Made by a program: the position numbers and the translations under genes
Source of the DNA: Porticoccaceae bacterium
GTDB taxonomy: Bacteria > Pseudomonadota > Gammaproteobacteria > Pseudomonadales > Porticoccaceae
Length of the DNA: 64,000 bases
Direction of reading: 5' to 3'
Assembly: GCA_028280905.1 (NCBI GenBank)
Contig: JANQKW010000331.1
Span: forward strand, 2,000-65,999
The notes under the pieces: generated by a model
The model's input: only the letters and a program-made list of their open reading frames with translations
The model's database searches: none
What the model was told of the DNA's origin: nothing
Shown: piece by piece, positions 1,364 to 23,549 of the stretch
Layout of the letters: each line of letters starts with the position of its first letter
How positions within the stretch are numbered: position 1 is the stretch's first letter

Positions 1364-1378
1364 GCAAAATACCTACCA
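1364..1378 (-). promoter_or_regulatory. Candidate sigma-54 (RpoN) -24/-12 promoter for the acyl-CoA synthetase gene
   Basis: Minus strand reads TGGTAGGTATTTTGC. GG and GC have the exact RpoN spacing (consensus TGGCAC-N5-TTGC). It lies ~190 nt upstream of ATG 1173 and points into it. Confidence 0.6.
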
Positions 1379-1573
1379 ACATTATTAAACCATAGTTTTA
1401 CGCTGCGGCACTTGCAAAGTTGCAGTCGCAGCAGGCACAACGCCGTCAAAATGTCTTTGATAAATACAATCGGATATCGGATATCAGGGTAATTCGAGAA
1501 AAGATGTTGATGGGCTTGTTTAATATCGCCGGGCCTCCAATACCCTGTCAGTCAAATGCGATGGATTCTCAGC

Positions 1574-1588
1574 TGGTATACATTTTGC
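1574..1588 (+). promoter_or_regulatory. Candidate sigma-54 -24/-12 promoter for the TRAP Q/M (and probably cobS/cobT-like) unit
   Basis: TGGTATACATTTTGC on the plus strand, ~200 nt upstream of ATG 1789. It is divergent from the element at 1364..1378. Confidence 0.6.
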
Positions 1589-1788
1589 GTTATCTGAGTC
1601 AGAAGGTGTTAAAGAGCCCGGAGTTGGGGGCAGCAATCCCGGCGGTACAGACGCTGATCCGAGCGGGAACGCATGGGTTATTATTAAGGGCGGCACAAAA
1701 AATACATTTTGTTTAAAACTATTCAGGTAAAAGCTGGGGGGGTATAGGAAATGCTGTTCAATAACATTCCGCAGGTCGAATTGCGCTG

Positions 1789-2307
1789 ATGAAGTTTGTT
1801 GATTGGATCGATTCGGCGCTGGTGGCGATTGCCGCTTTTGCGCTGACATTCATTATGCTGATGACCACGGTTTCGGTGATGGGGCGCTATTTTTTTAATG
1901 CGCCCGTGCCGGACGACACGGCGATTAACGAAATACTCCTTGTCTTCGTGGTGTTCCTCCCGCTCAGTTATGTACAGGCGAAACGCGAGCATATTTTCGT
2001 TTCGGTTTTCTCCGAGTGGATGAGCAGCAATACCAAGGTTGTTTTGGATATCTTCGGAACAGTGGTTGGCGCGGTCATTTTTAGCGTAATTGCCTGGGCG
2101 GTCTTCACCGATTTTCAGCATGCCCTGATGACGGCTGAGTTCGTCGACTCCGCATTGAGGCTTCCCACCTGGCCGGGCAAGCTGGTTGTTGCATCGGGAA
2201 TTGCGCTGTTTTCACTGCGCTTGATCATTGATTCCGTCGCAATGTCCGCGGCGCTTGTCAAGGGTACTGCGGTGCCCGCAGAGGAGCAGCGCGAGGCGGA
2301 TAAATGA
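1789..2307 (+). CDS. TRAP transporter small permease (DctQ family)
   Basis: 172 aa with four hydrophobic segments. The N-terminus (...MGRYFFNAPVPDDTAINEILLVFVVFLPLSY) is typical of DctQ-type subunits. It lies upstream of a DctM-type large permease. Confidence 0.8.
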   Translation: MKFVDWIDSALVAIAAFALTFIMLMTTVSVMGRYFFNAPVPDDTAINEILLVFVVFLPLSYVQAKREHIFVSVFSEWMSSNTKVVLDIFGTVVGAVIFSVIAWAVFTDFQHALMTAEFVDSALRLPTWPGKLVVASGIALFSLRLIIDSVAMSAALVKGTAVPAEEQREADK

Positions 2308-2309
2308 TG

Positions 2310-2477
2310 CTAATTAGTGTCTGTCCAGAAACAAGCTTCCTGCTTGTTTCTTCGGGTCAAAATGCAAAAATGCGATTTTGCATTTCTCGCATTTTCAATG
2401 ACTTAGCGTCATCGAAAATGGCAGCACATCCGTGTGCTGCAGCTAGCCCCCGTCTTTATGGACGGGCACTAATTAAC
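2310..2477. repeat. Hairpin-rich ~170-bp insert with imperfect terminal inverted repeats (MITE/REP-like or structured RNA) between the TRAP Q and M genes
   Basis: Ends are CTAATTAGTGTCTGTCC (2310..2326) and GGACGGGCACTAATTAA (2460..2476), 14/17 complementary. Internal stem-loops: AGAAACAAGC/GCTTGTTTCT, AAATGCAAAA/TTTTGCATTT, CATTTTCAATGAC/GTCATCGAAAATG, GCAGCAC/GTGCTGC, CCCGTC/GACGGG. Confidence 0.6.
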
Positions 2478-2492
2478 CGGGCAGGACACTAG

Positions 2493-3836
2493 ATGGATCC
2501 TACACTGCTGGGAGGCATTGGGCTTATCGCCATGCTGTTGTTGGTGATGGTCCGTGTGCCGATAGCATTCGGTATGGCGATCGTTGGCTTTGCCGGCATT
2601 ATCCTCAGAATTGGTTGGTCACCCGGCGGCGAATTTGATTTTGCGCGCGGCTGGCAGGCTGCATTTGCCTATCTCTCCTTCGAACCTTACGTTTTTATCG
2701 CCAATTTTACTCTGGTGGCAGTGCCCTTGTTTCTGCTGATGGGCTATGTGGCGTTCCACGCAGGGTTTACCCGAGATATTTACGACACCGCGCGAGTCTG
2801 GTTGAGCAAACTGCATGGCGGGTTGGCGATGGCGTCGGTGGTCGGTTGTGCAATGTTCGGCGCAGTCAGCGGTTCGAGCCTGGCTACCGCGGCCGCCATG
2901 GGGAAGCTGGCGGTTCCGGAAATGCTGCGTCACAAATACAATCCCGGCCTGGCCGGCGGTGTCGTGGCGGCGAGCGGCACGCTCGGTTCGCTAATCCCGC
3001 CCAGCATTCTTATGATCCTCTACGGGATATTTACTGAAGAGTCGGTGGGCCGGTTGCTGCTTGCCGGACTTATTCCGGGATTACTTTCGGCATTGGTCTA
3101 TATGCTAATGGTATGGGTGCGGGCCAAGGTTAACCCTGAACTGGCGCCCGCGGGGGGCGGCTATACATGGCGTGAGCGGTTTGCCTCGCTGCGGGGGACC
3201 TGGTCAATGGTCACGCTTTTCCTGATCGTCATGGGCAGTATTTATTCGGGACTTGTGACACCCACGGAAGCGGCGGCCGTCGGGGCAATCGGCGCGTGGG
3301 CGATTGCCCTGATGTCGCGGCGAATGACCAGGGACAACAGCCGCAACGCGATAGTTGAAACCATCAGGCAGACGGCGAGTATCTTCGCGATCGTGCTCGG
3401 CGCGAAAATCTTCGTCAGTTTTATTTCACTGACGGGTGTCGCCGGAGCGTTAACGGAATGGGCGCTATCCTTGGATATGCATCCGGTAATGGTGTTGTTC
3501 GCGCTTTCAATGATCTACATTGTACTCGGGACCTTTATGGACCCGCTCGGAATTATGTTGCTCACACTGCCGGTGGTCACGCCGGTAATCCAGGAAATGG
3601 GATTCGACCTGATCTGGTTTGGCGTCATTATGATCAAGTTGCTTGAAATTGGGCTGATCACGCCTCCCGTCGGCCTAAACGTCTATATCCTGAAAGGCGT
3701 GCTAGGCGATAGCGTGAGGTTGGAGGCGCTGTTTAAAGGTATTTTCTGGTTCCTGGCGATGGACGTCCTGACGCTGGCTATTTTGATAATATTTCCCCAG
3801 ATTAGTCTATGGTTGCCGAACCAGCTTATGAACTAA
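2493..3836 (+). CDS. TRAP transporter large permease (DctM family)
   Basis: 447 aa polytopic membrane protein of typical DctM length and pattern (...GSSLATAAAMGKLAVPEM...GTLGSLIPPS...ITPPVGLNVY). Confidence 0.9.
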   Translation: MDPTLLGGIGLIAMLLLVMVRVPIAFGMAIVGFAGIILRIGWSPGGEFDFARGWQAAFAYLSFEPYVFIANFTLVAVPLFLLMGYVAFHAGFTRDIYDTARVWLSKLHGGLAMASVVGCAMFGAVSGSSLATAAAMGKLAVPEMLRHKYNPGLAGGVVAASGTLGSLIPPSILMILYGIFTEESVGRLLLAGLIPGLLSALVYMLMVWVRAKVNPELAPAGGGYTWRERFASLRGTWSMVTLFLIVMGSIYSGLVTPTEAAAVGAIGAWAIALMSRRMTRDNSRNAIVETIRQTASIFAIVLGAKIFVSFISLTGVAGALTEWALSLDMHPVMVLFALSMIYIVLGTFMDPLGIMLLTLPVVTPVIQEMGFDLIWFGVIMIKLLEIGLITPPVGLNVYILKGVLGDSVRLEALFKGIFWFLAMDVLTLAILIIFPQISLWLPNQLMN

Positions 3837-3925: not shown

Positions 3926-4933
3926 ATGGACGTAGATAACCCGGCCATAGCGGCCGATTCCACCTTTCCTCTGGATAAGCCCGATACAGTTGTTGCGGTG
4001 CGAGAGGCGTTCGGGATTGACGTGGATATGGAAGTCCCGGCCTTTAGCAAGCGCGAGTCCCACGTTCCGGACATTGATGGTGCGTACAGGTTCGATCGCG
4101 ATACCACGCTGGCCATTTTGGCCGGATTTGCATACAACCGCAGAGTCATGGTCCAGGGGTATCACGGGACCGGAAAGTCGACGCATATTGAGCAGGTTGC
4201 GGCCCGGCTAAACTGGCCGCTTATTCGTGTTAACCTCGACAGTCACGTCAGCCGTATCGACCTCGTCGGCCGGGATGCGATAGTCTTGAAAGACGGCCAG
4301 CAGGTTACCGAGTTTCAGGAGGGAATACTCCCCTGGTGTTTGCAGCGACCCTGTGCACTTGCCTTCGATGAATATGATGCGGGGCGCCCCGATGTGATGT
4401 TTGTTATCCAGCGCATCCTTGAAGTTGAGGGCAGGCTGACCCTGCTGGATCAAAACCGGGTGATACAGCCGCACAGCTTTTTCCGCCTTTTTGCAACGTC
4501 CAACACTATTGGCCTGGGTGATACCACGGGCCTCTATCACGGCACCCAACAGATAAACCAGGCCCAGATGGACCGCTGGAACATCGTTGCCACGCTCAAC
4601 TACCTTGCGGCTGAAGACGAACAGGAGATAGTGCGGTCCAAGGTATCGAGCATGGACACGCCAGAGGGGCGCGAGCGAATAAGGATCATGGTGGCGTTGG
4701 CGGACCTCACGCGAAAGGGATTCATATCCGGCGACGTTTCCACCGTCATGTCACCCAGAACGGTTATAACCTGGGCGGAAAATTTTGAGATATTTACAGA
4801 CATCGCCTACGCGTTCCGCGTGACATTTCTCAACAAGTGCGACGAGTTGGAGCGGCCGATGTTCTGCGAGTACTACCAGCGGTGCTTTGGTACGGATCTT
4901 CCGGGCAGCATCGCCGACCGGGTGGAGCGTTAG
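3926..4933 (+). CDS. cobS: CobS-like AAA+ (MoxR-class) ATPase
   Basis: 335 aa with the blocks [60 protein letters not shown] and [20 protein letters not shown]. These match aerobic cobaltochelatase CobS-family proteins as I remember them. Confidence 0.85.
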
Positions 4934-4949
4934 GCGGGAAGGCGCTGGT

Positions 4950-6740
4950 ATGGCTGAACCCACCCATGTCCCGGACATTCTAAAGCGAGTTACTGAAGGT
5001 ACGATTCGAGCCCTCTCGGCAACGCCCGGGTTAAGCGTGTGTTTCGGGGAAGGGCAGGCCGGCAGGTCAGAGGACAGTGTGATTCTGCCCGCGCCGCTGA
5101 AGTCGGTTGATATCCGATGGTTGGCTCAGTTCCGGGGCCGTGCCGATACGCTTGCGTTGCGGCGCCGCTATCACGATCCGGTTGTTCACGGCAATATCCG
5201 CCCCAAAGGGAATTATGAGGGAGATATTTTCGATGTTCTGGAATCGGTTCGCGTCGAGGTTCTCGGTAGCCGCGTTTTCGCAGGTGTGGCCGAGAACCTG
5301 TCACAACTGCTTGCCGAAGAGTGCCGCGCTAAGGGCTATGATGTGTCCCGGGCGCTAAGCCCTGCAAGCCTGGCCGCTGCCAGTGCGCTGCTGGTGCGCG
5401 AGCGTCTAACGGGAATTGCCGCGCCGGTAACGGCGAGTGCCTTGCTCTCTGAATGGCGCCCTTTGATAGCAGAGAAGATTTCCCCATTTCTGGATGATCT
5501 GGATCGCCTTACAGAGAACCAGCACGCGTATGGCAGGGCGGTTATCAATATGCTGCGGTTTCTCGATATCAATATTCAACACAGCCGCGGAGACGAGAAC
5601 GCTGAATCCGAGCAGTCCCGCGCGGCGAATGAAGATGTGGAACAGCGGGGAGACGACAACACCCGATTAGAAGATAGCGTTACCGAAAACACCGCCATCG
5701 GGCTGGATAGCCAAGCCCGGCAAACCAACGTGATTAGGCTGCCTGGTGCAAGGGGTGCCGGGGCAGTCGCGTCCCGGCGTTCGGGCGAGCGCGGTGGCGA
5801 TCGCGCATACGATCAATCGGACTATAAGGTCTACACGGACACTTTTGACGAGATCGTTATGGCGGAGCAGTTGTGTGACCCCGAGGAGCTGACTGCCCTC
5901 AGGCAGCAACTTGACCAGCAGGTTTCACAGCTTAACAGGCTCATCAACGTGATGGCCAACAGACTGCAGCGGCGCCTTATGGCCAGACAGCGAAGGATGT
6001 GGGATTTTGATCTGGAGGAAGGGCTATTGGATGCCGCGCGCCTGTCTCGGGTGGTCGCGAGTCCAACCTACTCATTGTCATTTAAACAGGAATCTGAAGT
6101 TGCCTGCAGCGACACGGTGGTTAGCCTGTTGATCGACAACTCCGGGTCGATGCGCGGTTGGCCAATCACTGTTGCCGCTACCAGTGCGGATATTCTTGCC
6201 CGGACACTGGAGCGGTGTGGTGTCAGGGTCGAGATTCTCGGTTTTACCACAGCATCATGGAAGGGCGGCGCATCGAGGGACGCTTGGGTGACGGCGGGAA
6301 AACCGGCAGCGCCCGGGCGACTCAATGACATTCGCCATATTGTCTACAAGAGTGCTGACAGGCCCTGGAGGCGTGTGCGAAAGAACCTGGCATTGATGCT
6401 TAAAAAGGGATTGCTAAAAGAGAATATCGATGGAGAAGCACTGCTATGGGCCCACGGCAGGCTGCTGGCCCGTCCGGAACAGCGTCGGATTATGATGGTT
6501 ATTTCGGACGGTGATCCCGTCGACAACGCCACCCTCGCGGTTAATCCCGAGGGCTATCTTGAAGAGCATTTGCAGCGGGTGGCCAGCTGGATAGAAACGC
6601 ATTCGCGTGTTGAACTGCTCGCCATCGGCATCGGCCATGACGTTTCTCGCTATTATCGGCGGGCGGTGATGGTTGAGGAGGCCTCTGACCTCGGCAAAGC
6701 CATGATGCAGGCGTTTATCGAGCTGTTTGATAACAAATGA
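4950..6740 (+). CDS. cobT: CobT-like protein with acidic linker and C-terminal von Willebrand A domain
   Basis: The ORF track starts at 4887, but ATG 4950 (MAEPTHVPD) avoids overlap with cobS. It has an acidic middle region ([23 protein letters not shown]). The C-terminal VWA/MIDAS-like motif is [11 protein letters not shown]...ISDGDPVD. Confidence 0.8.
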
Positions 6741-6887: not shown

Positions 6888-7025
6888 GCTATCTTGCCTG
6901 CAAATTGGTTTTAAAAGCCATTTGACGTCTGCTGTTTTACGGCAAGAACGCGTAGCTTCTCCTGTTTTTTCAAGGCGAGGCTTTTACTGCTGCGCTGGTT
7001 GGAGTTCACGATTTGGAGAGTCAGA

Positions 7026-7940
7026 ATGTTTGAAGTAGTTACCGAAGGTTTATCTTTTCCCGAAGGCCCGATAGCCATGCCCGATGGCAGCGTGATCCTG
7101 GTGGAGATCTGCGCGGCCAATTTGACTCGGGTTAATGCCGATGGCAACACCGATGTGATTGCAAGCTTGGGCGGCGGACCCAATGGTGCGGCCATTGGTC
7201 CGGATGGCCATTGCTACGTTTGCAACAATGGCGGTGGTTTCGCCTGGCAGTCAGATGAAAATGGCACCCGCGTAGTCGGTCTGTCCGATGACTACAGTGG
7301 CGGCCGTATTGAACGCGTGAACCTGGAAACCGGCGAGCTGGAAACGCTTTATACGCATTGTGGTGATATTGCCATCCAGGCGCCTAATGACATTGTGTTC
7401 GATGAGCAGGGCGGTTTTTGGTTTACCGACACGGGCCGGCGCCTGCCCACCTCGGTAGAACACGGCGCTGTTTATTACGCTACCGTCGACGGCAAGCACA
7501 TCGAGCGCCGGGCATACCCGATGATGGCGCCTAACGGTATTGGCTTATCGCCCGACGAAAAAACCCTGTATGTGACAGAAACTCAGGCGGGTCGTCTGTG
7601 GCGTTTCAAAGTTGACCAGCCCGGCACTATTGCCAAAGAACCGACCATGACCGGCGGCACCTTCATGACCGGCGTATCGACTTTTAGATTCTTTGACTCC
7701 TTCGCGATGGACGTCGAAGGCGGCATCCACATAGGTTCGCTGCAGGAAGGCGGCATTACCAGCGTTTCCGCCGACGCTAAAGAAGTCACTCACACGCCGC
7801 TGCCGGATCGCCTGGTAACCAATATGTGTTTCGGCGGCGAAGGCTTAAAAACCGCTTATATCACGCTCGGTTTGACCGGTAAACTGATCAAAATGACGTG
7901 GCCTACCGCCGGTTTGCCGCTGAATTTTTTGAATAAGTAG
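7026..7940 (+). CDS. SMP-30/gluconolactonase/LRE-family lactonase
   Basis: Motifs FPEGPIAMPDGSV, PNDIVFDEQGGFWFTD and PNGIGLSPDEKTLYVTET. Start moved to ATG 7026, preceded by GGAGAG. Confidence 0.85.
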   Translation: MFEVVTEGLSFPEGPIAMPDGSVILVEICAANLTRVNADGNTDVIASLGGGPNGAAIGPDGHCYVCNNGGGFAWQSDENGTRVVGLSDDYSGGRIERVNLETGELETLYTHCGDIAIQAPNDIVFDEQGGFWFTDTGRRLPTSVEHGAVYYATVDGKHIERRAYPMMAPNGIGLSPDEKTLYVTETQAGRLWRFKVDQPGTIAKEPTMTGGTFMTGVSTFRFFDSFAMDVEGGIHIGSLQEGGITSVSADAKEVTHTPLPDRLVTNMCFGGEGLKTAYITLGLTGKLIKMTWPTAGLPLNFLNK

Positions 7941-7952: not shown

Positions 7953-8705
7953 ATGAGTCTTATTGGAAAAAATGCCGTCGTCACGGGCGCGGCCATGGGA
8001 ATAGGACAGGCCGTTGCCGTCCGCTTGGCAAAAGATGGCGCCGATGTGGCCATTATCGATATCAACGAAGAGGGCCTGCGGGAAACGGCAAAGTTAGTCG
8101 AAGCGGAAGGCCGCAAGTGCCTCCCTGTGGTCTGTGATCTGCTTGATAGAGACGCCATAAAAGCGTCCTTCGACAAGATCAAAAAAGCACTGGGCTTCAT
8201 TGAAATCCTGCACAACAATGCCGGGCAAAGCGCGCGCCAGGCATCCAAGCCCTTTGGTGAAACAGACATCGAGCAGTGGGACTTTGTGGTGGACCTGAAT
8301 CTGAGGGCCACCGCAGATTGTACCCGCGAAGTTTGTAGCGAAATGCGCGAACGCGGCACCGGCCGTATTATTACCACGGCGACCTCCTACGTTTACTGGG
8401 GCGGCGAAGGCGTTACGGATTACACCGCGGCCAAAGCCGGCGTTATCGGCTTTACCCGTTCGCTTGCGTTGGAGCTGGCGCCGTATGGCGTCACGGTAAA
8501 TTGTGTCTGCCCCGGGGTGACCATGACACGTGCCTTGGAACAGGTGCCCAAGAACGTGATGGATGAGGCGATCTCCAAAATTCCCATGAAGAAGGCAGGT
8601 ACCCCCGAGTGCCTTGCAGGCGCAGTGTCCTTTTTCGCCAGTCCGGGATCCTGGTATGTAACCGGTACCCATTTGCTGGTTAACGGCGCTCAGATTTTGA
8701 TTTAA
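7953..8705 (+). CDS. Short-chain dehydrogenase/reductase (SDR), copy 1 of a tandem pair
   Basis: TGAAMGIG cofactor motif and YTAAK catalytic motif; 250 aa. Confidence 0.9.
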   Translation: MSLIGKNAVVTGAAMGIGQAVAVRLAKDGADVAIIDINEEGLRETAKLVEAEGRKCLPVVCDLLDRDAIKASFDKIKKALGFIEILHNNAGQSARQASKPFGETDIEQWDFVVDLNLRATADCTREVCSEMRERGTGRIITTATSYVYWGGEGVTDYTAAKAGVIGFTRSLALELAPYGVTVNCVCPGVTMTRALEQVPKNVMDEAISKIPMKKAGTPECLAGAVSFFASPGSWYVTGTHLLVNGAQILI

Positions 8706-8753: not shown

Positions 8754-9506
8754 ATGAGTCTGGAAGGAAAAATTGCCGCTGTCACGGGAGCGGCAATGGG
8801 AATCGGCAGGGCGTCAGCCATTCGTTTAGCACAAGACGGCGCCGATATCGCGGTTTTGGATATCTTTGAAGAAGGCTTGATGGAAACCGTTAAGCTGGTT
8901 GAAGCTGAAGGCCGCAAGTGTCTGCCGGTGGTTCTCGACCTGCTCGATCGCGACGCCGTCAAAGCGGCGTTTGCCAAAATCAGGGCAGAGTTGGGCGCTG
9001 TCGATATTTTGCATAACAACACCGGGCAAAGCGGTCGTGAAAAAGCGGCATCCTTTGAAGAGTCTTCCGCCGAACAATGGGATTTCATTCAAAACATTAA
9101 TGTTCGTGTCGCGGCGGATTGCGCCCGTGAAGTGATTGCCGATATGAAAGCCAAGGGCGAAGGTCGAATTATCAATACTTCATCCAGCACCGCTTACCGC
9201 GGCGGCAAAGGCTTAACGGATTATGCGACGTCCAAGGCGGCAATCCTCGGGTTGACCCGTTCGCTGGCATTGGAGTTCGCAGAAGACGGCATTACCGTCA
9301 ACGCGGTGTGTCCCGGCACTGTCGCAACGCGAGCGCTAACGGATTTGCCCGAGAGTGTCGTGCAGCCGGTAATCGACCAGATACCGATTAAGAAGGTCTG
9401 CCAGCCGGAAGATATTGCCCATGTGGTGTCCTACTATGCCAGTCCTGACGCCTGGTACACCACGGGCACGCATTTGATGGTCAATGGCGGCCGGGTGCTG
9501 ATTTAG
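8754..9506 (+). CDS. Short-chain dehydrogenase/reductase (SDR), copy 2 of a tandem pair
   Basis: 250 aa, collinear with the preceding SDR and roughly 55-60% identical by eye (shared KLVEAEGRKCLPVV, ILHNN, TRSLALE, WYxTGTHLxVNG). Confidence 0.9.
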   Translation: MSLEGKIAAVTGAAMGIGRASAIRLAQDGADIAVLDIFEEGLMETVKLVEAEGRKCLPVVLDLLDRDAVKAAFAKIRAELGAVDILHNNTGQSGREKAASFEESSAEQWDFIQNINVRVAADCAREVIADMKAKGEGRIINTSSSTAYRGGKGLTDYATSKAAILGLTRSLALEFAEDGITVNAVCPGTVATRALTDLPESVVQPVIDQIPIKKVCQPEDIAHVVSYYASPDAWYTTGTHLMVNGGRVLI

Positions 9507-9557: not shown

Positions 9558-10316
9558 TCAGCCGGTCATCGCGCCGTCAATGCGAACCGTGGTTCCGGTG
9601 ACATAGGGGCTGGCGTCGGACAATAAAAAACAAATCAACTCGGCGGCTTCCCTGGGGTCGCCCAAACGGGCAGCGGGTACTCGTTCCTTAACCCTTTTGA
9701 TGGATTCCGGCGTTGCAAATTTATCCTGAAACGGCGTGTCAAACGGTCCCGGCGAGACGGCGTTAACACGAATTCCCTGCGCGGCAAATTCGCGACCCAT
9801 CCCAATGGTCAGGCTCAGTATGCCTCCCTTGGCCGCCGCATAGTGTACTGAATGGCCGGGGTTGCCCAGGTACGCAGCAACCGAGGCGATATTGACGATG
9901 CTGCCTTTACCCCGTTCGAGCATAAATTTCACCGCTTCCCGGGCACAGAGGAAGGTGCCGCGCAGATTCTGCGCCATGCAGGACTCCCAGGTTTCAAGGG
10001 TGCAGTCGACAAAGCTGTTTCTGCAAACCGGCCCGCCCGCTGCGTTGAGCAGCATATCGATACGACCATAGGTATCCTGGGCCTTTTTCACCATGCTAAC
10101 CACCTGATCTTCGTTGGTAACATCGGTGTGTACGAACAGCGCCTGAGTTCCGCAGGCTTCAATCTCCGCCGCGGTTTCAGGGCCGCGCGTTGCGTCAAAA
10201 TCGGCCACGACAATAGCCCGGGCGCCGCGTTCTGCGAGCAGTACCGCCGTCTCTCGCCCAATGCCGCTGGCGCCGCCGCTGATAATTGCAACCTGATCGG
10301 TAAAATTGTGAGTCAT
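9558..10316 (-). CDS. Short-chain dehydrogenase/reductase (SDR)
   Basis: Start moved to the internal ATG (MTHNFTDQVAIISGGASGIGR). Has the YAAAK catalytic motif. Last gene of the minus-strand operon. Confidence 0.85.
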   Translation of the reverse strand: MTHNFTDQVAIISGGASGIGRETAVLLAERGARAIVVADFDATRGPETAAEIEACGTQALFVHTDVTNEDQVVSMVKKAQDTYGRIDMLLNAAGGPVCRNSFVDCTLETWESCMAQNLRGTFLCAREAVKFMLERGKGSIVNIASVAAYLGNPGHSVHYAAAKGGILSLTIGMGREFAAQGIRVNAVSPGPFDTPFQDKFATPESIKRVKERVPAARLGDPREAAELICFLLSDASPYVTGTTVRIDGAMTG

Positions 10317-10385
10317 AAAATACCTGTATTCTTTGTTGGGTGTATTGTTGTTGCCCGCGTGGCTCCGGGGCGCTGCTGCGCCCAC

Positions 10386-13950: not shown

Positions 13951-14069
13951 TGCATCACACAGGTATAAGCGGCAAAAATAGGTATGTAGGTATAGCGCAA
14001 CATGGACTCCAATTTTGAATCCGGCATACTCAGCCGGATGAAACCCAGCAGGCGTGTAAACAGGTGAAT

Positions 14070-15197: not shown

Positions 15198-15260
15198 TCA
15201 GTAGCATTTCAAAAGTCGAGGCGTTTGACCGTGCCGGGTTTACCAAATCAGGAGAGTAGA

Positions 15261-16658
15261 ATGAATGATGTCGCTATCAGCAGCTTGTCGCTGGCGGAGG
15301 AAATGGTTGCGCTTAACGCCGACGCCCTGTCGCCTGATGACCTGGCGCAATTACAGAACCTGTTGCTCGATTATGCTGCGGTGGCATTGTGTGGGTCAAT
15401 GCAACCCTGGGGGCAAAAACTGACTTGCTGGGCATCCCGGCACGGCGCCCATGGCGATGTTCGTCTGATAGGCAGCGGTCAAACAGCGGGTGCCGCCACC
15501 GCCGGGCTGGTAAACGGCACCTCAGCGCATGGCTATGAAGTCGATGACACCCACGAATTGTCCTTGACACACCCGGGCGCGGTAGTGATAAGCGCAGCCC
15601 TGGCGGTGGCAACCGAACAGGGATCGAGTGGCCGTGAAGCCCTGTCTGCTATGGCCGCCGGATATGAGGTAATGACCCGGCTGGGGCTGGCTGCACATTC
15701 TCGCGATTTGGTTGACCGGGGTTTCCACGTCACTTGCCTATACGGAACCTTCGCCGCGGCCACCGCGGCGGCCAAGCTGATGGGGCTTGATGCAAACGCG
15801 ATGGCTCGAGCATGGGGGCTGGCGCTGTCCATGACCGGTGGCGCATCCCAGTTTGCTTTCGAGCCTGAGGGCACCATGGTCAAACGTATGCATGGCGGTA
15901 TCCCGGCGCATAACGGTATTGTTGCGGCCCAACTAGCATCCCTGGGGATGACCGCGCCGGTGCGCGCCTTTGAAGGTGAATTCGGGTTTTTGCATCTCTA
16001 TGGCGCTGACACTGATCCGGAGCGGCTTTTCAAGGCAAAGGGAACGCCGCTGGAGATTCACCAGATGAGCCTGAAACCCTACGCCTGCTGCCGGAAATTT
16101 CATTCGCTTATAGACGCTTTGGAGCAGGCGACCGGGGGGTTCAGTTTGTCGCTCGACAACATTGCGGCGATCGAAGTGCATACCCCACAGAATTCGATTA
16201 CCAAACATCAGATGCGCAGGCCGGAATCCGTAATGGCCGCGCAATATTCGATGCCGTATATTGCGGGCGCGACGCTTGCCTACGGCCCCAACCGATTTGA
16301 CGCCTATGAAGAAGCGTATCACCGCGACGCGAAAATTCTCAGGGTGATTGACAAGGTCACGGCGCACCGCGATGAAAATTTAGAACAGCAAGCGCCCGGT
16401 CGCATGTCGGCCCGGGTGGTATTGCGCCTTGAGAGCGGTGATGTGCGGGAAGCTAAGGTGATAGAGGCGTTGGGCTCGCCCGCGCGACCTCTCGACAGAC
16501 AGCGCATTTTGGCCAAAGCCCGGGCGCTGTTGGCGATGGTCGCTCCATCGGTGGATATTGACGCTATAGCAGCGGCCGTCGATGGCTTAACCGATGCAGA
16601 CACGGTCACGTTATTGACGGAAAAACTTGTTGTGCCGGGATACCGGATTAATTCATAA
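15261..16658 (+). CDS. MmgE/PrpD-family protein (2-methylcitrate dehydratase-like)
   Basis: 465 aa from ATG 15261 (AGGAGA upstream). LLDYAAVALCGS...GSGQTAGAATAGLVNGTSAHGYEVDD is the typical PrpD-family N-domain. Confidence 0.8.
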   Translation: MNDVAISSLSLAEEMVALNADALSPDDLAQLQNLLLDYAAVALCGSMQPWGQKLTCWASRHGAHGDVRLIGSGQTAGAATAGLVNGTSAHGYEVDDTHELSLTHPGAVVISAALAVATEQGSSGREALSAMAAGYEVMTRLGLAAHSRDLVDRGFHVTCLYGTFAAATAAAKLMGLDANAMARAWGLALSMTGGASQFAFEPEGTMVKRMHGGIPAHNGIVAAQLASLGMTAPVRAFEGEFGFLHLYGADTDPERLFKAKGTPLEIHQMSLKPYACCRKFHSLIDALEQATGGFSLSLDNIAAIEVHTPQNSITKHQMRRPESVMAAQYSMPYIAGATLAYGPNRFDAYEEAYHRDAKILRVIDKVTAHRDENLEQQAPGRMSARVVLRLESGDVREAKVIEALGSPARPLDRQRILAKARALLAMVAPSVDIDAIAAAVDGLTDADTVTLLTEKLVVPGYRINS

Positions 16659-16687: not shown

Positions 16688-17848
16688 ATGAAAGGGCCAC
16701 TTGACGGATATCGCATACTCGATTTAACCGCTTTTATTTCGGGACCTTACGGAAGTCAGCTACTGGGAGATCTGGGCGCCGATGTCATTAAGGTGGAGCC
16801 GCCCAGAGGGGATGAAACTCGAGAGAAGGGCACCAGTCCCTCGCAAAATATGGGCCCGGGCTTCATGAACCTGAACCGCAACAAGCGCAGTATTACCATG
16901 AACTTAAAGGATCCGGCCGACCGGGAAAAGTTCTATGCGTTAGTCGATTCAGCGGACGTGTTGTTTCACAATATGCGGCCGGAGGCGATGGCCCGCCTCG
17001 GTGTTTCCTATCAGGATCTGATCAAGATTCGCGGGGATATTATTTACTGCCAGATCGTCGGCTTTAATTCCGATGGGCCTTATGGCGGTCGTCCGGCCTT
17101 TGAGGACGTGATTCAGGGAGTTTCAGCCTATACGGCGTTGCAGGGCAAAGCCAGCGGCGAGCCCGCCTATGCGGCTTTCGCGATGATGGATACGATTGCC
17201 GGCGTATTCGCCGCCAAAAGTATCATCGCTGCATTGCTGCATCGTGAGCGCACCGGCGAAGGCCAGCAAATTGAAGTGCCGATGTTGGAAACAGGGCTGG
17301 CTTTTTACATGCCCTCCAATATGTGGGATCGCACTTATCAGCCTGACGGGGAGCTGGGTTATCCCCGTTACCTGACGCCCAGCCGCAAGCCGTTCAAAAC
17401 CAAAGACGGCTATATCTGCACTGTCTTCTCGGGTGAACGGCAGTTTAAAGCCTTTTTCCGTGCAGGGGGCCGTCCGGAACTTATCGAAGATCCCAGGTTT
17501 GCCACCAATAAAGCCAGGTCAATTAATTCCGATGAGCTGTGGTCGGTGGTCGGCGAGATTTTTGCGGGCAAGACGACTGCGGAGTGGGTAGCCGTAATGG
17601 CTGAGGCCGATCTGCCGGGTATGCCGATGAATCAGATGCAGGATTTATTTACCGATACGCATCTGACTGAGGTGGGGTTTTTCAGGGATATGCAACACCC
17701 CACGGAAGGGCCGGTAAAACTGTTGGCAACGCCGATTAAGTTCTCCAGGTCTCCCACGGCAATTCATCGCATGCCGCCCCGCCTTGGCGAGCACAACGAG
17801 GAAGTGTTGGGACCATTGGACAAAGGAACCGGCGACAACCCGGCTTGA
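16688..17848 (+). CDS. Family III (CaiB/BaiF) CoA-transferase
   Basis: GYRILDLTAFISGPYGSQLLGDLGADVIKVEPP...NRNKRS is the hallmark N-terminus of the family. Confidence 0.9.
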   Translation: MKGPLDGYRILDLTAFISGPYGSQLLGDLGADVIKVEPPRGDETREKGTSPSQNMGPGFMNLNRNKRSITMNLKDPADREKFYALVDSADVLFHNMRPEAMARLGVSYQDLIKIRGDIIYCQIVGFNSDGPYGGRPAFEDVIQGVSAYTALQGKASGEPAYAAFAMMDTIAGVFAAKSIIAALLHRERTGEGQQIEVPMLETGLAFYMPSNMWDRTYQPDGELGYPRYLTPSRKPFKTKDGYICTVFSGERQFKAFFRAGGRPELIEDPRFATNKARSINSDELWSVVGEIFAGKTTAEWVAVMAEADLPGMPMNQMQDLFTDTHLTEVGFFRDMQHPTEGPVKLLATPIKFSRSPTAIHRMPPRLGEHNEEVLGPLDKGTGDNPA

Positions 17849-18021: not shown

Positions 18022-20115
18022 GTGAGTTCGAACATGCGTATGGGTTGCGATATCGGCGGCACCTTTACTGATTTCGTGGTATTTGATGAGGACACGGGGA
18101 CGCTGCGGGTTGAAAAGTGCCTCACCACGCCCAGGGACCCTTCTGATGGGGTCATGGAGGGTGTGCGTTTGCTCGACGAAGACGCCCCGGGGTTTTTAAC
18201 ACAAACAGGGCAGGTATTTCACGGTACAACCTTGGTCATAAACGCCGTGTTGGAGCGCAGAGGCGCTAAAACGGCTTTATTGACAACCGAGGGTTTTCGG
18301 GACGTTCTGGCGATAGGAACGGAGCGTCGCTATGACCTGTACGATTTGCAACAGCAATATCCTGAACCCCTGGTGCCGCGACGATTGCGACTGGGAGTTA
18401 ATGAGCGAATCCGCAGTGACGGCAAAGTCATACGCGAACTCGATCAGGCGCAGATAAAGAAGCTTGCGGCCGAACTCAAATCAGAGGATGTGGAATCCGT
18501 AGCGATTTGTCTGCTTCACTCCTATACCAATCCGCAACATGAACAACAGTTACGCGTGATGTTTGAGGAAGCCCTGCCCGGCGTGAATATCTCTCTGTCG
18601 TCTGAAGTGTTGCCGGAAATAAACGAGTATACGCGTACCTCGACAACGGTGGTAAACGCCTACTGTAAACCCTTGATGACCAGCTATTTGACCAGCTTGA
18701 AAGAGCGAATGAATGACAATGGGTTGGCCGGCCAGTTGCTGGTGATGCTGTCCAGCGGCGGTGTCACTTCGATTGACACCGCGAGTCGCAATCCGGTTCG
18801 GCTGATTGAGTCCGGGCCGGTGGGCGGGGTGATTCTGGCCCAGCATGTCAAGGCTCTGTGCGGAATGAAGGACGCTTTTGCCTTTGATATGGGTGGCACC
18901 ACGGCAAAAATTTGTATTATGGAGGGAGACACGCTGCCGCGCACCAGCGTCTATGAAGTGGCTCGCACCCAGCGTTTTAAAGTCGGCAGTGGTCTGCCGA
19001 TCAAGGTGCCCTGTGTCGATCTGCTGGAAATAGGTACCGGCGGCGGCAGTATCGCCGGCATCAACGATCTTGAATTGCTGCAGGTGGGTCCGCGCAGCGC
19101 CGGTTCGGAGCCAGGCCCGGCCTGTTACGGGCTTGGGGGTGAAAACCCGACGGTTACTGACGCCGACCTGGTATTGGGTTACCTTGACCCGAATTTCTTT
19201 CTCGGCGGTGAAATGAAGCTGGATGTTGACGCCGCTCAAGCTGCAATTGAGGCTAAAGTCGGCCAGCCGCTGGGATTGGACGTCGCCCGGGCGGCCTTCG
19301 GTATTCATGATTCCGCCAACGAAAGTATGGCCGCCGCTACCAGGATGTATGCGGCAGAGCGCGGCGTTGATCCGACCGAACTCGCACTGGTGGCATCCGG
19401 CGGCGCCGGTCCGGTACATTGCTACGGATTGGCCGCCAAGCTGGGTGTGCGGGAAATCATTATTCCGGTTGCGGTAGGCGTGGGTTCGGCGTTGGGCTTT
19501 TTGGTGGCGCCGATATCCTACGATTTGGTTCGCACCCACAAAGTACCGCTGCCGGATGCTGATTTATCGGAAGTGGAATCGCTGTTCCGTGGCCTTGAGG
19601 CGGATGCGCGTGGGGTTATGAAAGAAGCCGGACAAACCAAAGAGCCCGAATTTGTCAGGTCCCTCGATGTGCGTTACGTGGGGCAGGGATACGAAATTAA
19701 CGTTGTGCTTCCGCGAGGGGCTGTTGATTCGCAGGGCATGAGTGCCTTGGCCGAGCTGTTCCAGGCCACCTATGAGGAACTCTTTGGCCGCTCATTCGAA
19801 GGCAACGCCTTTGAAATAGTCAACCTCAGAATCATTGCCAGTGGACCGATACCACCGAGCCCGATAGTGCCGCGCGCCGGCACCGGGAGTGACTACAGAA
19901 AAACAGCGAGGCAGGCATGGTGCCCAATCGCGGATGGGTACGTTGAACATCGGGTTTACGACCGCTACTCGGTCCCCACCGGGCTGACCTTGGAAGGCCC
20001 CGCTATCTTCGAGGAGCGCGAATCTACGGTGGTTGTCGGGTCGGGGGCGACGGCCTGGGTGGATGAGCAGGGTTTATTGAGAATTCGACTTCCCGAAGAA
20101 GGAGTGACACCATGA
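18022..20115 (+). CDS. Hydantoinase/oxoprolinase A-family subunit (HyuA-like; ATP-dependent lactamase/carboxylase beta-type)
   Basis: CDIGGTFTDFVV N-terminal ATPase motif, ~690 aa. The start is ambiguous (GTG 18022 with AGGAGA upstream, or ATG 18034/18040). Confidence 0.9.
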   Translation: MSSNMRMGCDIGGTFTDFVVFDEDTGTLRVEKCLTTPRDPSDGVMEGVRLLDEDAPGFLTQTGQVFHGTTLVINAVLERRGAKTALLTTEGFRDVLAIGTERRYDLYDLQQQYPEPLVPRRLRLGVNERIRSDGKVIRELDQAQIKKLAAELKSEDVESVAICLLHSYTNPQHEQQLRVMFEEALPGVNISLSSEVLPEINEYTRTSTTVVNAYCKPLMTSYLTSLKERMNDNGLAGQLLVMLSSGGVTSIDTASRNPVRLIESGPVGGVILAQHVKALCGMKDAFAFDMGGTTAKICIMEGDTLPRTSVYEVARTQRFKVGSGLPIKVPCVDLLEIGTGGGSIAGINDLELLQVGPRSAGSEPGPACYGLGGENPTVTDADLVLGYLDPNFFLGGEMKLDVDAAQAAIEAKVGQPLGLDVARAAFGIHDSANESMAAATRMYAAERGVDPTELALVASGGAGPVHCYGLAAKLGVREIIIPVAVGVGSALGFLVAPISYDLVRTHKVPLPDADLSEVESLFRGLEADARGVMKEAGQTKEPEFVRSLDVRYVGQGYEINVVLPRGAVDSQGMSALAELFQATYEELFGRSFEGNAFEIVNLRIIASGPIPPSPIVPRAGTGSDYRKTARQAWCPIADGYVEHRVYDRYSVPTGLTLEGPAIFEERESTVVVGSGATAWVDEQGLLRIRLPEEGVTP

Positions 20116-21776
20116 GCCAAACATTCGACGCGCTGACACTGGAACGCGCCTGGTCGCGCCTGAAATCGATCGCCGACGAGGCCGACGCCAGCGTTATGCG
20201 CACGGCCTTCTCCAGCATTATTCGCGACTCTCATGATTATTCCTGTGCCTTTTATGATGCTCGCGGCTACCTGATGTCGCAGCCCGGCTTTGTGACACCG
20301 GGATTGCTGGGCGGCATGACGGCGGCTATTCGCGCCATAAACGACTATTTCCCGTTTCAATCACTGGTCGAAGGGGACGTGATTATTACTAACGATCCGT
20401 GGCTTGTTTGCGGCCATCTGCCTGATGTCATGGTCGCGGCGCCAGTCTTCCACCACGGCAAACTGGTCGCTTTCGCCGCCTGTGTTTTTCACCATCAGGA
20501 TATCGGCGGTCGTCTGGGCGTCGATAACCGCGAGATCTTTGAAGAAGGTCTGCAAATTCCGCCGTCGATGTTGTGCCGCGCCGGCCAATTTAACGAAGAC
20601 CTGATAGGCGTTATGAGCGCCAACTCCCGTATGCCGGAGTTGTTAGTCAACGATATTCGCTCGCAGGTTAATACCGTTCAGTTTACCGGCAGCCGCATCC
20701 GGGCATTTCTCGATGAATTTGGCTGGGACAGCCTGGAGCCTATCGCCGACGCTATTTTTGAGCGCACTGAAGTTGCGTTACGCAAGTCGATTGAGGAGAT
20801 TCCCGACGGCGTGTACAGGTCCGAATACCCGATTGAAACCGGCGACGGTGACCGGACGGTTTTGGTTAAGCTGGCGTTGACCGTGGACGGTGGCAGCGTT
20901 ACCGCGGATTTTGAGGGTTCCGACCCGCAGATCGATCGCGGAATCAACTGTGTATTGAATTTCACCATTGCCTATTGCCTGTTCGCCTTGAAGTCAGTGA
21001 CCGCGCCATTCCTGCCAAACAATCACGGTTCTACCAAACCCTTTACGGTGAAAGCGCCGGAAGGCTCCATTGTCAATGCAAAGCGGCCCGCAGCGGTGAT
21101 TGCGCGTAACACGGTTGGCCATTTTATTCCCTCGCTGGTTTACGAGGCGCTTGCGGAAGTTGTCCCGGAAAAAGTGATTGCCGAAAGCGGTTCCCTGCCA
21201 ACCTGGTGGTTGACACTGGCGGGAACGCGTCACGACGGCCGTCCGTTTATGGTCGGCCCGATGTTTTCCGGCGGCATAGGCGCGCGAAGCTCCTCCGACG
21301 GCGTCTCCTGCTTAACCTTTCCGGCCAATGTCAACAACACCCCGGTTGAATTGCTGGAATCCGATAGCCCGCTTATTGTCGAGCGCCGTGAATATCTGCA
21401 GGACTCCGGTGGTGCGGGTCGCTACCGCGGCGGGCTCGGGCAGGAGTTCGCGCTGCGAGTGCCGGATGACGATATGGCCCCGGACGGACCTGTAGTGGAA
21501 TTTCTCACCGCGGGCCGCTTCTCAACGGTGGCGAAAGGTGTTTCCGGCGGCGGCGAGGGTTCGTTGGCGTCGGCCATACTTAACGGCGAGCCGATCACCT
21601 GGGGTAAATCTTTTCTGCTAAATGCCGGTGATCGCATCAGCTACCGTACTGCAGGGGGTGGTGGTTACGGTGCTCCCGGGGAGCGCGACCGGGAGCTGGT
21701 GGCGGAAGAGCTGCGGGAGGGTTTGATCTCCGCAGAAGCGGCGTTCGACCTGTACGGACTGAAATCTCACGGGTAA
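20112..21776 (+). CDS. Hydantoinase B/oxoprolinase-family subunit (HyuB-like)
   Basis: 554 aa. ATGA overlap with the A subunit. ...SIIRDSHDYSCAFYDARG...GGAGRYRGGLG matches the family pattern. Confidence 0.9.
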   Translation: MSQTFDALTLERAWSRLKSIADEADASVMRTAFSSIIRDSHDYSCAFYDARGYLMSQPGFVTPGLLGGMTAAIRAINDYFPFQSLVEGDVIITNDPWLVCGHLPDVMVAAPVFHHGKLVAFAACVFHHQDIGGRLGVDNREIFEEGLQIPPSMLCRAGQFNEDLIGVMSANSRMPELLVNDIRSQVNTVQFTGSRIRAFLDEFGWDSLEPIADAIFERTEVALRKSIEEIPDGVYRSEYPIETGDGDRTVLVKLALTVDGGSVTADFEGSDPQIDRGINCVLNFTIAYCLFALKSVTAPFLPNNHGSTKPFTVKAPEGSIVNAKRPAAVIARNTVGHFIPSLVYEALAEVVPEKVIAESGSLPTWWLTLAGTRHDGRPFMVGPMFSGGIGARSSSDGVSCLTFPANVNNTPVELLESDSPLIVERREYLQDSGGAGRYRGGLGQEFALRVPDDDMAPDGPVVEFLTAGRFSTVAKGVSGGGEGSLASAILNGEPITWGKSFLLNAGDRISYRTAGGGGYGAPGERDRELVAEELREGLISAEAAFDLYGLKSHG

Positions 21777-21874
21777 GCCGGCATTGCTTGCCGGGACCGT
21801 CGTCGGCAGGGATGCCGACGTCGAGCTTACAAGGACGTATTCACAGCGCGTCCTGGCAAGCAATGCCGGCTTAC
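21773..21874. repeat. 102-bp nested palindrome overlapping the hyuB-like stop codon
   Basis: Arms are GTAAGCCGGCATTGCTTGCCGGGAC (21773..21797) and GTCCTGGCAAGCAATGCCGGCTTAC (21850..21874), 24/25 complementary. An inner hairpin CGTCGGCA-ggga-TGCCGACG is present. No U-tract follows. Confidence 0.7.
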
Positions 21875-21931
21875 CAACGTTCGGGTTAGTCATTAATAAC
21901 GACTACCATTGCTGACGAAATAGAGAATATC

Positions 21932-22657
21932 TTGAGCACGGACACTTTGTTGTTTGATGTTAGCGAGCATGTGGCGGTGATTACATTGAATCGCCCGGCA
22001 AAGCGCAATGCGATGAGCGGCGCGATGTTCCGTGCGTTTATGGATTGTCTCAATAGCGTGAGGCGGGACAGTGATATTCGCGCCGCTGTGATTAACGGCG
22101 CAGGAGGCGCTTTTTGTGCCGGTGTCGATCTCAAGGAGCGGGCAGCGGGTGACGATGGCCGCAATTTTGATAGAACGCCGGCGGCGTTGATTAACGCCAA
22201 CCCCTCCGATCGTTGGTCAACCATGACCGTTGAGAAACCGCTGATTGCCGCTGTCGACGGTTACGCCCTGGGCGGTGGTTTTGAAATATCACTGATGTGT
22301 GACATCAGAATTTGCTCCCCCGAGGCGCAGTTTGGTCTGCCGGAAATCGCGCGGGGTTTTTTTCCTGGAGGCGCAGGCCCGCAACGACTCGCTCGGGCGA
22401 TTCCCCAATCCATGGCCATGGAATTGTTGCTGACCGGTGATCGCATCGACGCCCATACCGCGCTGCGCTGCGGTCTGGTCAGCCGTGTCGTGCCCGGCGA
22501 GCAATTGCGAAATGCGGCGCTGAAAATCGCCAGACGCATCGCCGGTCACGCGCCTCTCGCCGTGCGAGCCGCAAAGCAAGTGACGCTGGCGTTCCCGGAT
22601 CAAACCCTTGATCAAGCCATGCGGCTCGGCGGGGCGCTGCGCTGGCCCAGTTGTTGA
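21932..22657 (+). CDS. Enoyl-CoA hydratase paralog, C-terminally truncated (possibly decaying)
   Basis: Collinear with the 12737..13531 product up to ...MRLGGALRW, then ends PSC*. It lacks the last ~25 aa (AIGQTEDAKEGPKAFAEKRDPVYKGR in the paralog). Its stop directly abuts the stop of the convergent hydrolase gene. Confidence 0.65.
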   Translation: MSTDTLLFDVSEHVAVITLNRPAKRNAMSGAMFRAFMDCLNSVRRDSDIRAAVINGAGGAFCAGVDLKERAAGDDGRNFDRTPAALINANPSDRWSTMTVEKPLIAAVDGYALGGGFEISLMCDIRICSPEAQFGLPEIARGFFPGGAGPQRLARAIPQSMAMELLLTGDRIDAHTALRCGLVSRVVPGEQLRNAALKIARRIAGHAPLAVRAAKQVTLAFPDQTLDQAMRLGGALRWPSC

Positions 22658-23329
22658 CTATGCGTTCATGTGTTTCGCCATAAAGGCCAGGGTTCTTTGC
22701 CAAGCGATTTTGGCATGCTCCTCCGAGTAGCTTGCTCGGTGATCACAGTTGAAACCGTGCTGAGCATCATAGGTCCGGATGTCTGCATTCGGTTGCGCCT
22801 CGCGAATGGCGTTGACGTGATCCATTGGGATAGAGTGGTCTTGCTCGCCGAAATGCAGCAATAGCGGGCAGCGGGGCGTCTCGTTGCGCATTTCCATTAT
22901 TTTGCCGCCATAGTAGCCTATTGCGCAGGCAAACCCGTCCAACCGGGTTGCAGCGGCGAAAGCAACCGAGCCGCCCAGGCAGAATCCGGTGACCGCGATG
23001 GGTTTGTTGCCGTTCAGCATGTCTCTTGCGGCGGCTGCGTCTCGCATATAGTCATCAAAGTTACCGTTGGCCATAAATCCCCGAGCGATATCAACCTTTT
23101 CTCCTTCGTAGCCGCACTGAAAATCCCGCTGCTGTCGGTCAAAGATAGAGGGCGCCACGGCAACATAGCCTGCGTCGGCAAAGCGATCTGTGACTTCGCG
23201 GATATGCTGATTTACACCAAAAATTTCCTGAACAACCACAATGGCGCCTTTTGTAACACCTGTTGGGCGGGATATATAGCCCCCCAGCTCAAAGCCGTCA
23301 GAAGCTGTTAACCTGATGTTTTCTCCCAT
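22658..23329 (-). CDS. Dienelactone hydrolase-family protein
   Basis: GAIVVVQEIFGVNQHIREVTDRFADAGYVAVAP and the nucleophile motif GFCLGG. Start moved to the ATG with GAGGA 8 nt upstream (MGENIRLTASDG). Confidence 0.85.
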   Translation of the reverse strand: MGENIRLTASDGFELGGYISRPTGVTKGAIVVVQEIFGVNQHIREVTDRFADAGYVAVAPSIFDRQQRDFQCGYEGEKVDIARGFMANGNFDDYMRDAAAARDMLNGNKPIAVTGFCLGGSVAFAAATRLDGFACAIGYYGGKIMEMRNETPRCPLLLHFGEQDHSIPMDHVNAIREAQPNADIRTYDAQHGFNCDHRASYSEEHAKIAWQRTLAFMAKHMNA

Positions 23330-23368
23330 AAGCACTGTCCTCATGTGTGTTTGGCTACAAATTGCTAC

Positions 23369-23383
23369 GCAATTTTCGCACCA
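23369..23383 (-). promoter_or_regulatory. Candidate sigma-54 -24/-12 promoter for the dienelactone hydrolase gene
   Basis: Minus strand reads TGGTGCGAAAATTGC, ~40 nt upstream of start 23329. Confidence 0.5.
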
Positions 23384-23534
23384 GTGCAAATTCACGCCCC
23401 TTGAGTTTCGCAAGTGTCTTCTTCGCGGACGTTCCGGGCGGATAATCTGAACATCCCGAAAACACAATTCAGTTTTGTAAAGATGATTTCCAGTAAAACA
23501 CCGGTATTCAACCGGTTCTTAGTGAGGCTTTTGG

Positions 23535-23549
23535 TGGCACAGAATTTGC
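23535..23549 (+). promoter_or_regulatory. Candidate sigma-54 -24/-12 promoter for the 9-gene acyl-CoA operon
   Basis: TGGCACAGAATTTGC, a near-perfect match to TGGCAC-N5-TTGC, 46 nt upstream of ATG 23595. Confidence 0.75.

Follow-up and report, generated by a model that had tools for sequence, protein, structure and literature searches.

Between the transcription units of a catabolic gene cluster in a Porticoccaceae bacterium, a 15-nt element of the form TGG-N8-TTGC recurs eight times. The cluster occupies the GC-richer left half of a stretch of 64,000 nt (assembly GCA_028280905.1, contig JANQKW010000331.1, positions 2,000 to 65,999), which we refer to as the window. The element resembles the promoters that are read by RNA polymerase with sigma-54 (RpoN). 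Such promoters need an AAA+ enhancer-binding protein (EBP), and none is encoded in the cluster. The locus thus raises the question whether the elements are promoters at all and, if they are, which protein activates them. The answer we favour, with a probability of roughly 0.8, is that the eight elements are genuine RpoN −24/−12 promoters of the cluster and that their activator is an ortholog of a family of EBPs of ∼550 amino acids (aa), encoded outside the window. The sites themselves, their enrichment, their placement and the conservation of their positions before orthologous operons were observed directly; the dependence on sigma-54 in vivo as well as the identity and the location of the activator are inferred.

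The eight elements are listed below as P1 to P8. The scores were obtained with the matrix described further down. Distances are counted between the GC element and the start codon and range from 39 to 200 nt overall.

P1, 1364-1378 (-), TGGTAGGTATTTTGC, 16.3 bits, 190 nt 5' of the ATG at 1173
P2, 1574-1588 (+), TGGTATACATTTTGC, 14.0 bits, 200 nt 5' of dctQ
P3, 6873-6887 (+), TGGCATGGTGCTTGC, 16.6 bits, 111 nt to the start codon
P4, 13590-13604 (-), TGGTATGTATTTTGC, 15.4 bits, 58 nt to the start codon
P5, 13936-13950 (+), TGGTATGTATTTTGC, 18.1 bits (top match of the window), 113 nt to the start
P6, 17951-17965 (+), TGGTATGCTTCTTGC, 15.3 bits, 56 nt to the start codon
P7, 23369-23383 (-), TGGTGCGAAAATTGC, 11.6 bits (rank 15, the weakest of the eight), 39 nt to the ATG at 23329
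P8, 23535-23549 (+), TGGCACAGAATTTGC, 16.6 bits, 45 nt to the start codon

All eight 15-mers were found where the original prediction had located them, on the same strands. The invariant GG and GC at the fixed −24/−12 spacing are present in every one of them. Each element lies upstream of the first gene of a unit and on the same strand as that gene, which bears out the claim that the elements point into operons. The three divergent pairs that had been described (P1/P2, P4/P5 and P7/P8) indeed stand back-to-back, and the members of the second pair are identical 15-mers 331 nt apart. P7 is intragenic only if the longest open reading frame (ORF) is chosen for its gene; within that ORF the Pfam domain extends from residue 62 onward, and there is an ATG with an AGGA motif at 23329. 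In its extended form P8 reads GTGGCACAGAATTTGCT and precedes a CoA-transferase gene. The flanks beyond the 17-mer are unrelated among the sites, thus the sites are not a dispersed repeat.

For the scoring we built a 17-column sigma-54 matrix with approximate frequencies of our own, based on the published consensus TGGCAC-N5-TTGCT (PMC12316311); the window sites were not used in building it. When both strands of the 64 kb were scanned, seven of the nine best matches were predicted sites, all of them in spacers within the first 24 kb. The intergenic DNA between 1 and 35 kb (2,557 nt) holds 8 matches of at least 11 bits, whereas 2,000 shuffles gave 0.28 on average and never more than 3. Outside these spacers 10 matches reached the same threshold and shuffles of the whole window gave 7.5 in total, thus the coding DNA is at chance level. 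The bare pattern TGG-N8-TTGC occurred 24 times in the window compared to 12.5 ± 3.4 times in dinucleotide shuffles. The scan that had been proposed as a check therefore places the enrichment in the spacers. For the intergenic DNA we measured 2.56 kb, compared to the earlier estimate of 2.3 kb.

Strong matrix matches were also encountered at two places within coding DNA of the window. One (51964-51980 (-), 16.5 bits) lies in a lyase gene at 50650-52221, the other (791-807 (+), 14.2 bits) is antisense in the acyl-CoA synthetase gene, and both are probably due to chance.

Positions that the original prediction had left unspecified follow the sigma-54 consensus too: an A comes after TGGY in seven of the eight sites, the next-but-one position is a G in six, and a pyrimidine precedes TGG in seven. 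This bears on the possibility that the motif is instead bound as an operator by some ordinary transcription factor, or that it arose by chance or from the base composition of AT-rich spacers. The AT content of the spacers exceeds that of the genes, TGGTAT-N5-TTGC departs from TGGCAC, and P4 and P5 share one 15-mer, all of which would fit such an origin. Nevertheless we consider it very improbable. The shuffles that produced 0.28 matches were made from the same spacers that hold 8, the sites have no dyad symmetry, and their strand is always that of the gene. Furthermore, the canonical TGGCAC-N5-TTGC stands at the same place in relatives that encode an EBP and rpoN. A sigma-70 scan found no convincing site in the promoter spacers, and an Rfam scan returned a tRNA alone and nothing in these spacers.

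The relatives come from several sources. Through the hyuA homolog P0126 (70% identity) we reached L009, a metagenomic contig of 7.9 Mb. It contains orthologs of seven window genes with 60-75% identity, arranged in two divergent operons. The first has the order hydratase, Mo subunit, SDR, hydratase and the second the order SDR, SDR, hyuA, hyuB. The identity to the window is 62-65% for the P4-type operon, 70% for hyuA and 67% for hyuB, and the two SDRs before hyuAB, which stand behind a sigma-54 site, are 60-75% identical to the SDRs of the P3 unit. After hyuB follow a gene for an EBP of 551 aa (Sigma54_activat, AAA lid and HTH_8 domains) and a complete rpoN (AID, CBD and DBD). At a threshold of at least 15 bits the matrix gave seven matches on L009, all in spacers or at gene ends; one precedes rpoN, and two stand back-to-back where the operons diverge. 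The 389 nt that separate hyuB from the EBP gene hold a 16.3-bit site at L009:13998-14014 (-). It faces the end of hyuB, and no gene is annotated downstream of it; the site may serve an antisense or small-RNA transcript, or may be a chance match.

The JGI contig L016 has the order EBP, rpoN, NMO, ETF genes, a DUF35 gene, CoA-transferase, hydratase and AMP-ligase, and the last three genes are 71-82% identical to window 23595-27279. On L014 (GCA_964271585.1) a DUF35 gene is followed by rpoN and then by a divergent EBP gene, and on a plasmid of Salipiger abyssi rpoN and an EBP gene adjoin.

The best annotated plasmid relative is the catabolic region at ∼50-135 kb of pP73A from Celeribacter indicus (NZ_CP004394.1). 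The paper on its genome assigned no function to this region (PMC4291564). In common with the window, pP73A has the P8 operon, the acyl-CoA synthetase (57% identity), TRAP systems, an MmgE/PrpD gene, a stand-alone Mo subunit and back-to-back sites in almost all divergent spacers. The eight genes of the P8 operon are 62-83% identical to those of the window and occur in two operon copies, each with seven genes in window order. We counted ∼24 intergenic sigma-54 matches over ∼100 kb, mostly as back-to-back pairs. There are also several differences: pP73A encodes two EBPs (P73_RS22555 and P73_RS22675) and an rpoN (P73_RS22670, adjoining a DUF35-like gene), whereas the window has none of these; its GC content is 68% and its sites show the canonical TGGCAC, compared to 55% and mostly TGGTAT in the window; and, unlike the window, the examined parts of pP73A hold neither hyuAB nor CobS/T-like genes. 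A block of hydratase, AMP-ligase, hydratase, SDR, acyl-CoA dehydrogenase and 3-hydroxyacyl-CoA dehydrogenase is present twice on the plasmid (L020 and L019; 66-75 kb and 103-111 kb of the record). The protein accessions of both blocks are identical, which points to a recent internal duplication.

Other homologs were set aside. The best match to the Mo subunit, on a megaplasmid of Ruegeria pomeroyi, belongs to an ordinary three-subunit xanthine-dehydrogenase locus that is unrelated. Homologs of the synthetase from one genome and one metagenome scan (L002, L004) showed 61-63% identity and no synteny. The contexts of MmgE/PrpD homologs (L006-L008) and two further hyuA contexts (L010-L013) are non-syntenic, without an EBP gene or sigma-54 sites. 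As negative controls we scanned L006, L007, L010, L012 and L018 (127 kb, non-syntenic) and obtained zero matrix matches of at least 14 bits.

Four of the eight window sites (P1, P4, P6 and P8) have positional counterparts before orthologous operons, in clusters that encode an EBP and rpoN:

Counterpart of P1 (190 nt in the window), pP73A L020:44880-44896, 122 nt upstream of the synthetase ortholog
Counterpart of P4 (58 nt in the window), L009:8368-8384 (-), CTGGCACGGTATTTGCT, 53 nt to the start
Counterpart of P6 (directly before hyuA in the window), L009:8413-8429, heading SDR-SDR-hyuAB
Counterpart of P8 (45 nt in the window), L016:8844-8860, TTGGCACAGAAGTTGCT, nearly identical to P8, 37 nt before the CoA-transferase gene (71% identity)
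Counterpart of P8 (45 nt in the window), pP73A L019:30635-30651 (-), TTGGCACGGGGATTGCG, 36 nt to the start

The orthologous spacers could not be aligned apart from the −24/−12 element, and MAFFT misplaced the promoters. An element that is kept while the DNA around it has become unalignable is the pattern expected of a functional element.

The EBP homologs form a large family of proteins of ∼550 aa. The EBPs of the related clusters share full-length identities of 58-76% and have a GSFTGA loop. A member of the family is present on L009, L014 and L016 and twice on pP73A, and a linked rpoN on L009, L014, L016, pP73A and the Salipiger abyssi plasmid; the window is without either gene. The rpoN paralogs share 41-62% mutual identity and keep the ARRTVAKYR box. 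A DUF35/ChsH2-like gene occurs in the same cluster as rpoN and adjoins it in L009, L014 and pP73A. Strong sigma-54 sites precede the rpoN genes of these clusters (L009:15833-15849, L016:2639-2655, L014:2277-2293 and L021:4849-4865), which implies positive autoregulation; a different sigma-54 would have to set it going. Where the regulator genes lie differs between the relatives: they follow hyuB in L009 and precede the CoA-transferase operon in L016, and on pP73A they are found both mid-cluster and 23 kb off. With regard to numbers, we observed one EBP amid at least seven sites in L009 and two amid ∼24 on pP73A. Centralised control, which had been called unusual for the window, is therefore the norm in this family.

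We then have to ask what the window itself encodes. Pfam scans of the ORFs that were read as genes gave no match to PF00158 and no Sigma54 domain of an rpoN, the latter neither in the window nor in the 2 kb to its left. Among the 27 cluster proteins there is no HTH and no sigma-54 interaction domain in Pfam. Six-frame searches for the loop G[AS][FY][TS][GD][AS] (GAFTGA, GSFTGA) and for the ESELFG and Walker motifs found none in the 64 kb or in L001, which extends 2 kb leftward, and the 532-nt spacer holds no plausible small regulator ORFs. Two DNA-binding regulators, and no others, are encoded in the window: a Fur-family protein (37299-37715) and a LysR protein (49668-50567), whose genes both belong to the AT-richer right half. 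The claim that the cluster contains neither an activator nor any other DNA-binding regulator hence agrees with the Pfam scans and the six-frame loop searches. The proposed search of the flanking DNA for an AAA+ protein covered 2 kb leftward and detected no GAFTGA-type loop there. The EBP candidate P0310 is not the organism's own protein, as it derives from another sample.

The sole AAA+ ATPase of the cluster belongs to a CobS-like AAA+/CobT-like VWA pair at 3926-6740, and this pair might be taken for an unconventional sigma-54 activator. We find this hardly credible. The ATPase matches AAA_5 and CobS_N and not PF00158, it has no GAFTGA-type loop, and there is no DNA-binding domain. Moreover, the tblastn matches on L009, L014, L016 and three stretches of pP73A include no counterpart of the pair, though the promoters are present there. 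The pair forms part of the TRAP operon, and no CobN is encoded nearby.

The original prediction had treated the lack of a local activator as an anomaly. However, the cluster is cut at the left edge of the window, where the P1 operon continues beyond, and the EBP and rpoN genes of the relatives sit at varying positions within the supercluster, with some of the sigma-54 sites as far as tens of kb away from them. That the local absence of an activator is anomalous is therefore not supported, and a centralised regulon without its activator is probably for the most part explained by the window edge or by encoding in trans.

Several observations nevertheless weigh against an ortholog of the EBP family that acts on eight genuine promoters. 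Five sites out of eight show TGGTAT in place of TGGCAC. At −11, directly after TTGC, five sites have G and three have T, compared to A/T in the general consensus; on pP73A this base is mostly G as well. The matrix approximates the published consensus and is not a curated one. The EBP and rpoN genes on which we base the proposed activator are those of the relatives' clusters and none comes from this organism. Furthermore, the best 120 homologs of the L009 EBP include none from the 69,244-bp source contig, so that a close ortholog in the other ∼5 kb of the contig is unlikely; the activator gene may lie at a more distant location or may have been lost. Upstream activator sites were looked for as well. 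In five promoter spacers of the window neither a k-mer search with mismatches nor a dyad search gave anything above shuffles, and a k-mer search of 21 promoter regions from four loci detected no shared site above shuffles. An inspection of the pP73A spacers by eye revealed no shared upstream site. One weak candidate motif, AGTGTCTT[CT], occurs in three spacers.

Some of these observations would also fit a cluster with real promoters that has been orphaned from its cognate EBP/rpoN module, and that is now silent, decaying or rewired to an unrelated host activator. Under this explanation one would point to the lack of a source-contig member among the 120 EBP homologs and to the drift of the window sites from TGGCAC to TGGTAT. 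EBP and rpoN are also missing from the place after hyuB that they take up in L009, and a 104-nt hairpin is found there instead. We regard orphaning as unlikely. Each of the 27 genes has an uninterrupted ORF with a full-length Pfam match, and the GG and GC at exact spacing in eight out of eight promoters argue for ongoing selection. In addition, the position of the regulator genes varies among the relatives, and to the left of the window 2 kb alone was covered.

A further explanation is that the promoters answer to a global EBP of the host, with NtrC- or CbrB-like nutritional control, and that for this reason none is encoded locally. Global EBPs drive many catabolic operons without a local activator, and both the missing local regulator and the failure to find a pathway-specific shared upstream site are compatible with this. 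Still, we think that such control has only a small chance of being the correct explanation, because each syntenic relative examined has a dedicated EBP and these belong to one coherent family. The NtrC-type dyad TGCACC-N5-GGTGCA was also absent from the output of the dyad search.

We therefore return to a family EBP that is encoded outside the window. The sigma-54 RNA polymerase would wait at the promoters as a closed complex, which the AAA+ EBP would remodel. The predicted activator is a sensor-AAA+-Fis EBP ortholog with a GSFTGA loop, of the kind that in the relatives often has a dedicated rpoN paralog and a gene of the DUF35/ChsH2 type as neighbours; a dedicated rpoN may accompany it in this organism too. 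Its gene could be located just past the left edge of the window, in the continuation of the cluster, or at some other place in the genome. The promoters would head a CoA-dependent catabolic cluster that combines TRAP uptake, lactonase and SDRs, a Mo-hydroxylase subunit, an ATP-dependent hydantoinase-family enzyme and a beta-oxidation-like operon.

A more far-reaching proposal, which we put forward tentatively and consider possible rather than probable, is that the window is a fragment of an undescribed class of large, horizontally moving catabolic superclusters with their own insulated control unit, here uncoupled from that unit. Nearly all transcription of such superclusters would start at sigma-54 promoters, as the ∼24 sites on pP73A illustrate. 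The unit may consist of a sigma-54-dependent rpoN paralog, one or two cognate EBPs of ∼550 aa and a DUF35-like gene. The uncoupled cluster may then run on the RpoN of the host and a distant activator, or not at all.

The gene content was derived from Pfam scans of all large ORFs. The units behind the eight elements are as follows:

P1 unit (-), NDP-forming acyl-CoA synthetase, window 1-1173 and running past the left edge, then an MFS transporter
P2 unit (+), dctQ 1789-2307, dctM 2493-3836, CobS-like AAA+ 3926-4933, CobT-like VWA 4887-6740
P3 unit (+), SMP-30/gluconolactonase-like 6999-7940, SDR 7953-8705, SDR 8754-9506
P4 unit (-), enoyl-CoA hydratase 12737-13531, stand-alone xanthine-dehydrogenase-family Mo subunit 10386-12716, SDR 9558-10385
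P5 unit (+), dctP 14064-15197, MmgE/PrpD-family gene 15225-16658, family III CoA-transferase 16688-17848
P6 unit (+), hydantoinase/oxoprolinase-family hyuA 18022-20115, hyuB 20112-21776, possibly also an enoyl-CoA hydratase 21932-22657
P7 unit (-), dienelactone-hydrolase-family gene 22658-23329
P8 operon (+), 23595-32885, eight genes in the order CoA-transferase, enoyl-CoA hydratase, AMP-ligase, enoyl-CoA hydratase, SDR, acyl-CoA dehydrogenase and two 3-hydroxyacyl-CoA dehydrogenases

The eight putative promoters thus correspond to eight of nine apparent transcription units; the ninth is the hydratase gene at 21932, which lacks such a site. Look-ups of exact proteins led to the short Logan contigs L001, L003 and L005 (SRR20820735), and on L001 the synthetase of the P1 unit has a length of 710 aa with the MFS transporter next to it.

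Several features of these units were noticed in passing. dctQ and dctM normally abut; here the spacer between them (2308-2492, 185 nt) holds five consecutive hairpins with a dG of −81.7 kcal/mol and a z of −9.6, and has no Rfam match. The Mo subunit at 10386-12716 (-) has no adjoining genes for a 2Fe-2S or FAD subunit. It stands alone in L009 and on pP73A as well, and on pP73A the FeS, FAD and CoxG genes adjoin the synthetase instead. The near-perfect hairpin of ∼104 nt right after the hyuB stop (21772-21875, dG −74 kcal/mol, z −8.9) occupies the exact place of the EBP and rpoN genes in L009, and could be a terminator, a REP/MITE-like element or the scar of a rearrangement. Beyond the cluster the GC content falls from ∼57% to ∼47% exactly at a tRNA-Ala(GGC) gene (36543-36618). 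The GC content at third codon positions is 0.62-0.76 for the genes left of the tRNA, including gltX, and mostly 0.39-0.54 to the right of it. The AT-richer right half may be an island, or the contig may be a chimeric join within a metagenome-assembled genome.

If the promoters are genuine, they amount to a regulon prediction of eight promoters and ∼27 genes for an uncharacterised degradation pathway, and through pP73A this pathway is tied to a cultured and tractable relative, Celeribacter indicus P73. The main interest is at the level of the family, with catabolic islands that carry their own sigma-54 paralog and activator and use sigma-54 for nearly every operon. Such islands would exemplify a portable and insulated transcription system for metabolism. 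Our literature search turned up neither an account of this cluster family nor one of a hydantoinase cluster linked to rpoN.

Control of catabolic operons by sigma-54 and an EBP is classical, as in XylR with Pu and Ps on the TOL plasmid, DmpR with Po, and AcxR with acetone carboxylase. The window resembles these systems in the −24 GG and −12 GC at exact spacing before degradation operons and in the predicted need for an AAA+ activator. The acetone carboxylase system offers a further parallel, as an ATP-dependent enzyme of the hydantoinase family would stand behind a sigma-54 promoter here too. In contrast, XylR, DmpR and AcxR serve one or two sigma-54 promoters and their regulator genes adjoin these, whereas there are eight such elements here and no local regulator. 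The EBPs of the relatives also differ from XylR in that they matched no V4R sensor in Pfam; for the L009 member the AAA+, lid and HTH_8 domains alone were detected. Cereibacter sphaeroides offers a second comparison, with its pairs of a dedicated RpoN paralog and a cognate EBP (RpoN1/NifA, RpoN2/FleQ and RpoN3/AprX), and there the −11 base contributes to the discrimination among RpoN paralogs (PMC11999139). By analogy, the G-rich −11 position of the window sites could be a mark of paralog specificity, which we offer as a lead. The pairs of Cereibacter sphaeroides serve nitrogen fixation, flagella and a repressor gene, and not a catabolic supercluster. In the same way as that organism, the relatives carry an extra rpoN beside a specific EBP, whereas the window has neither gene.

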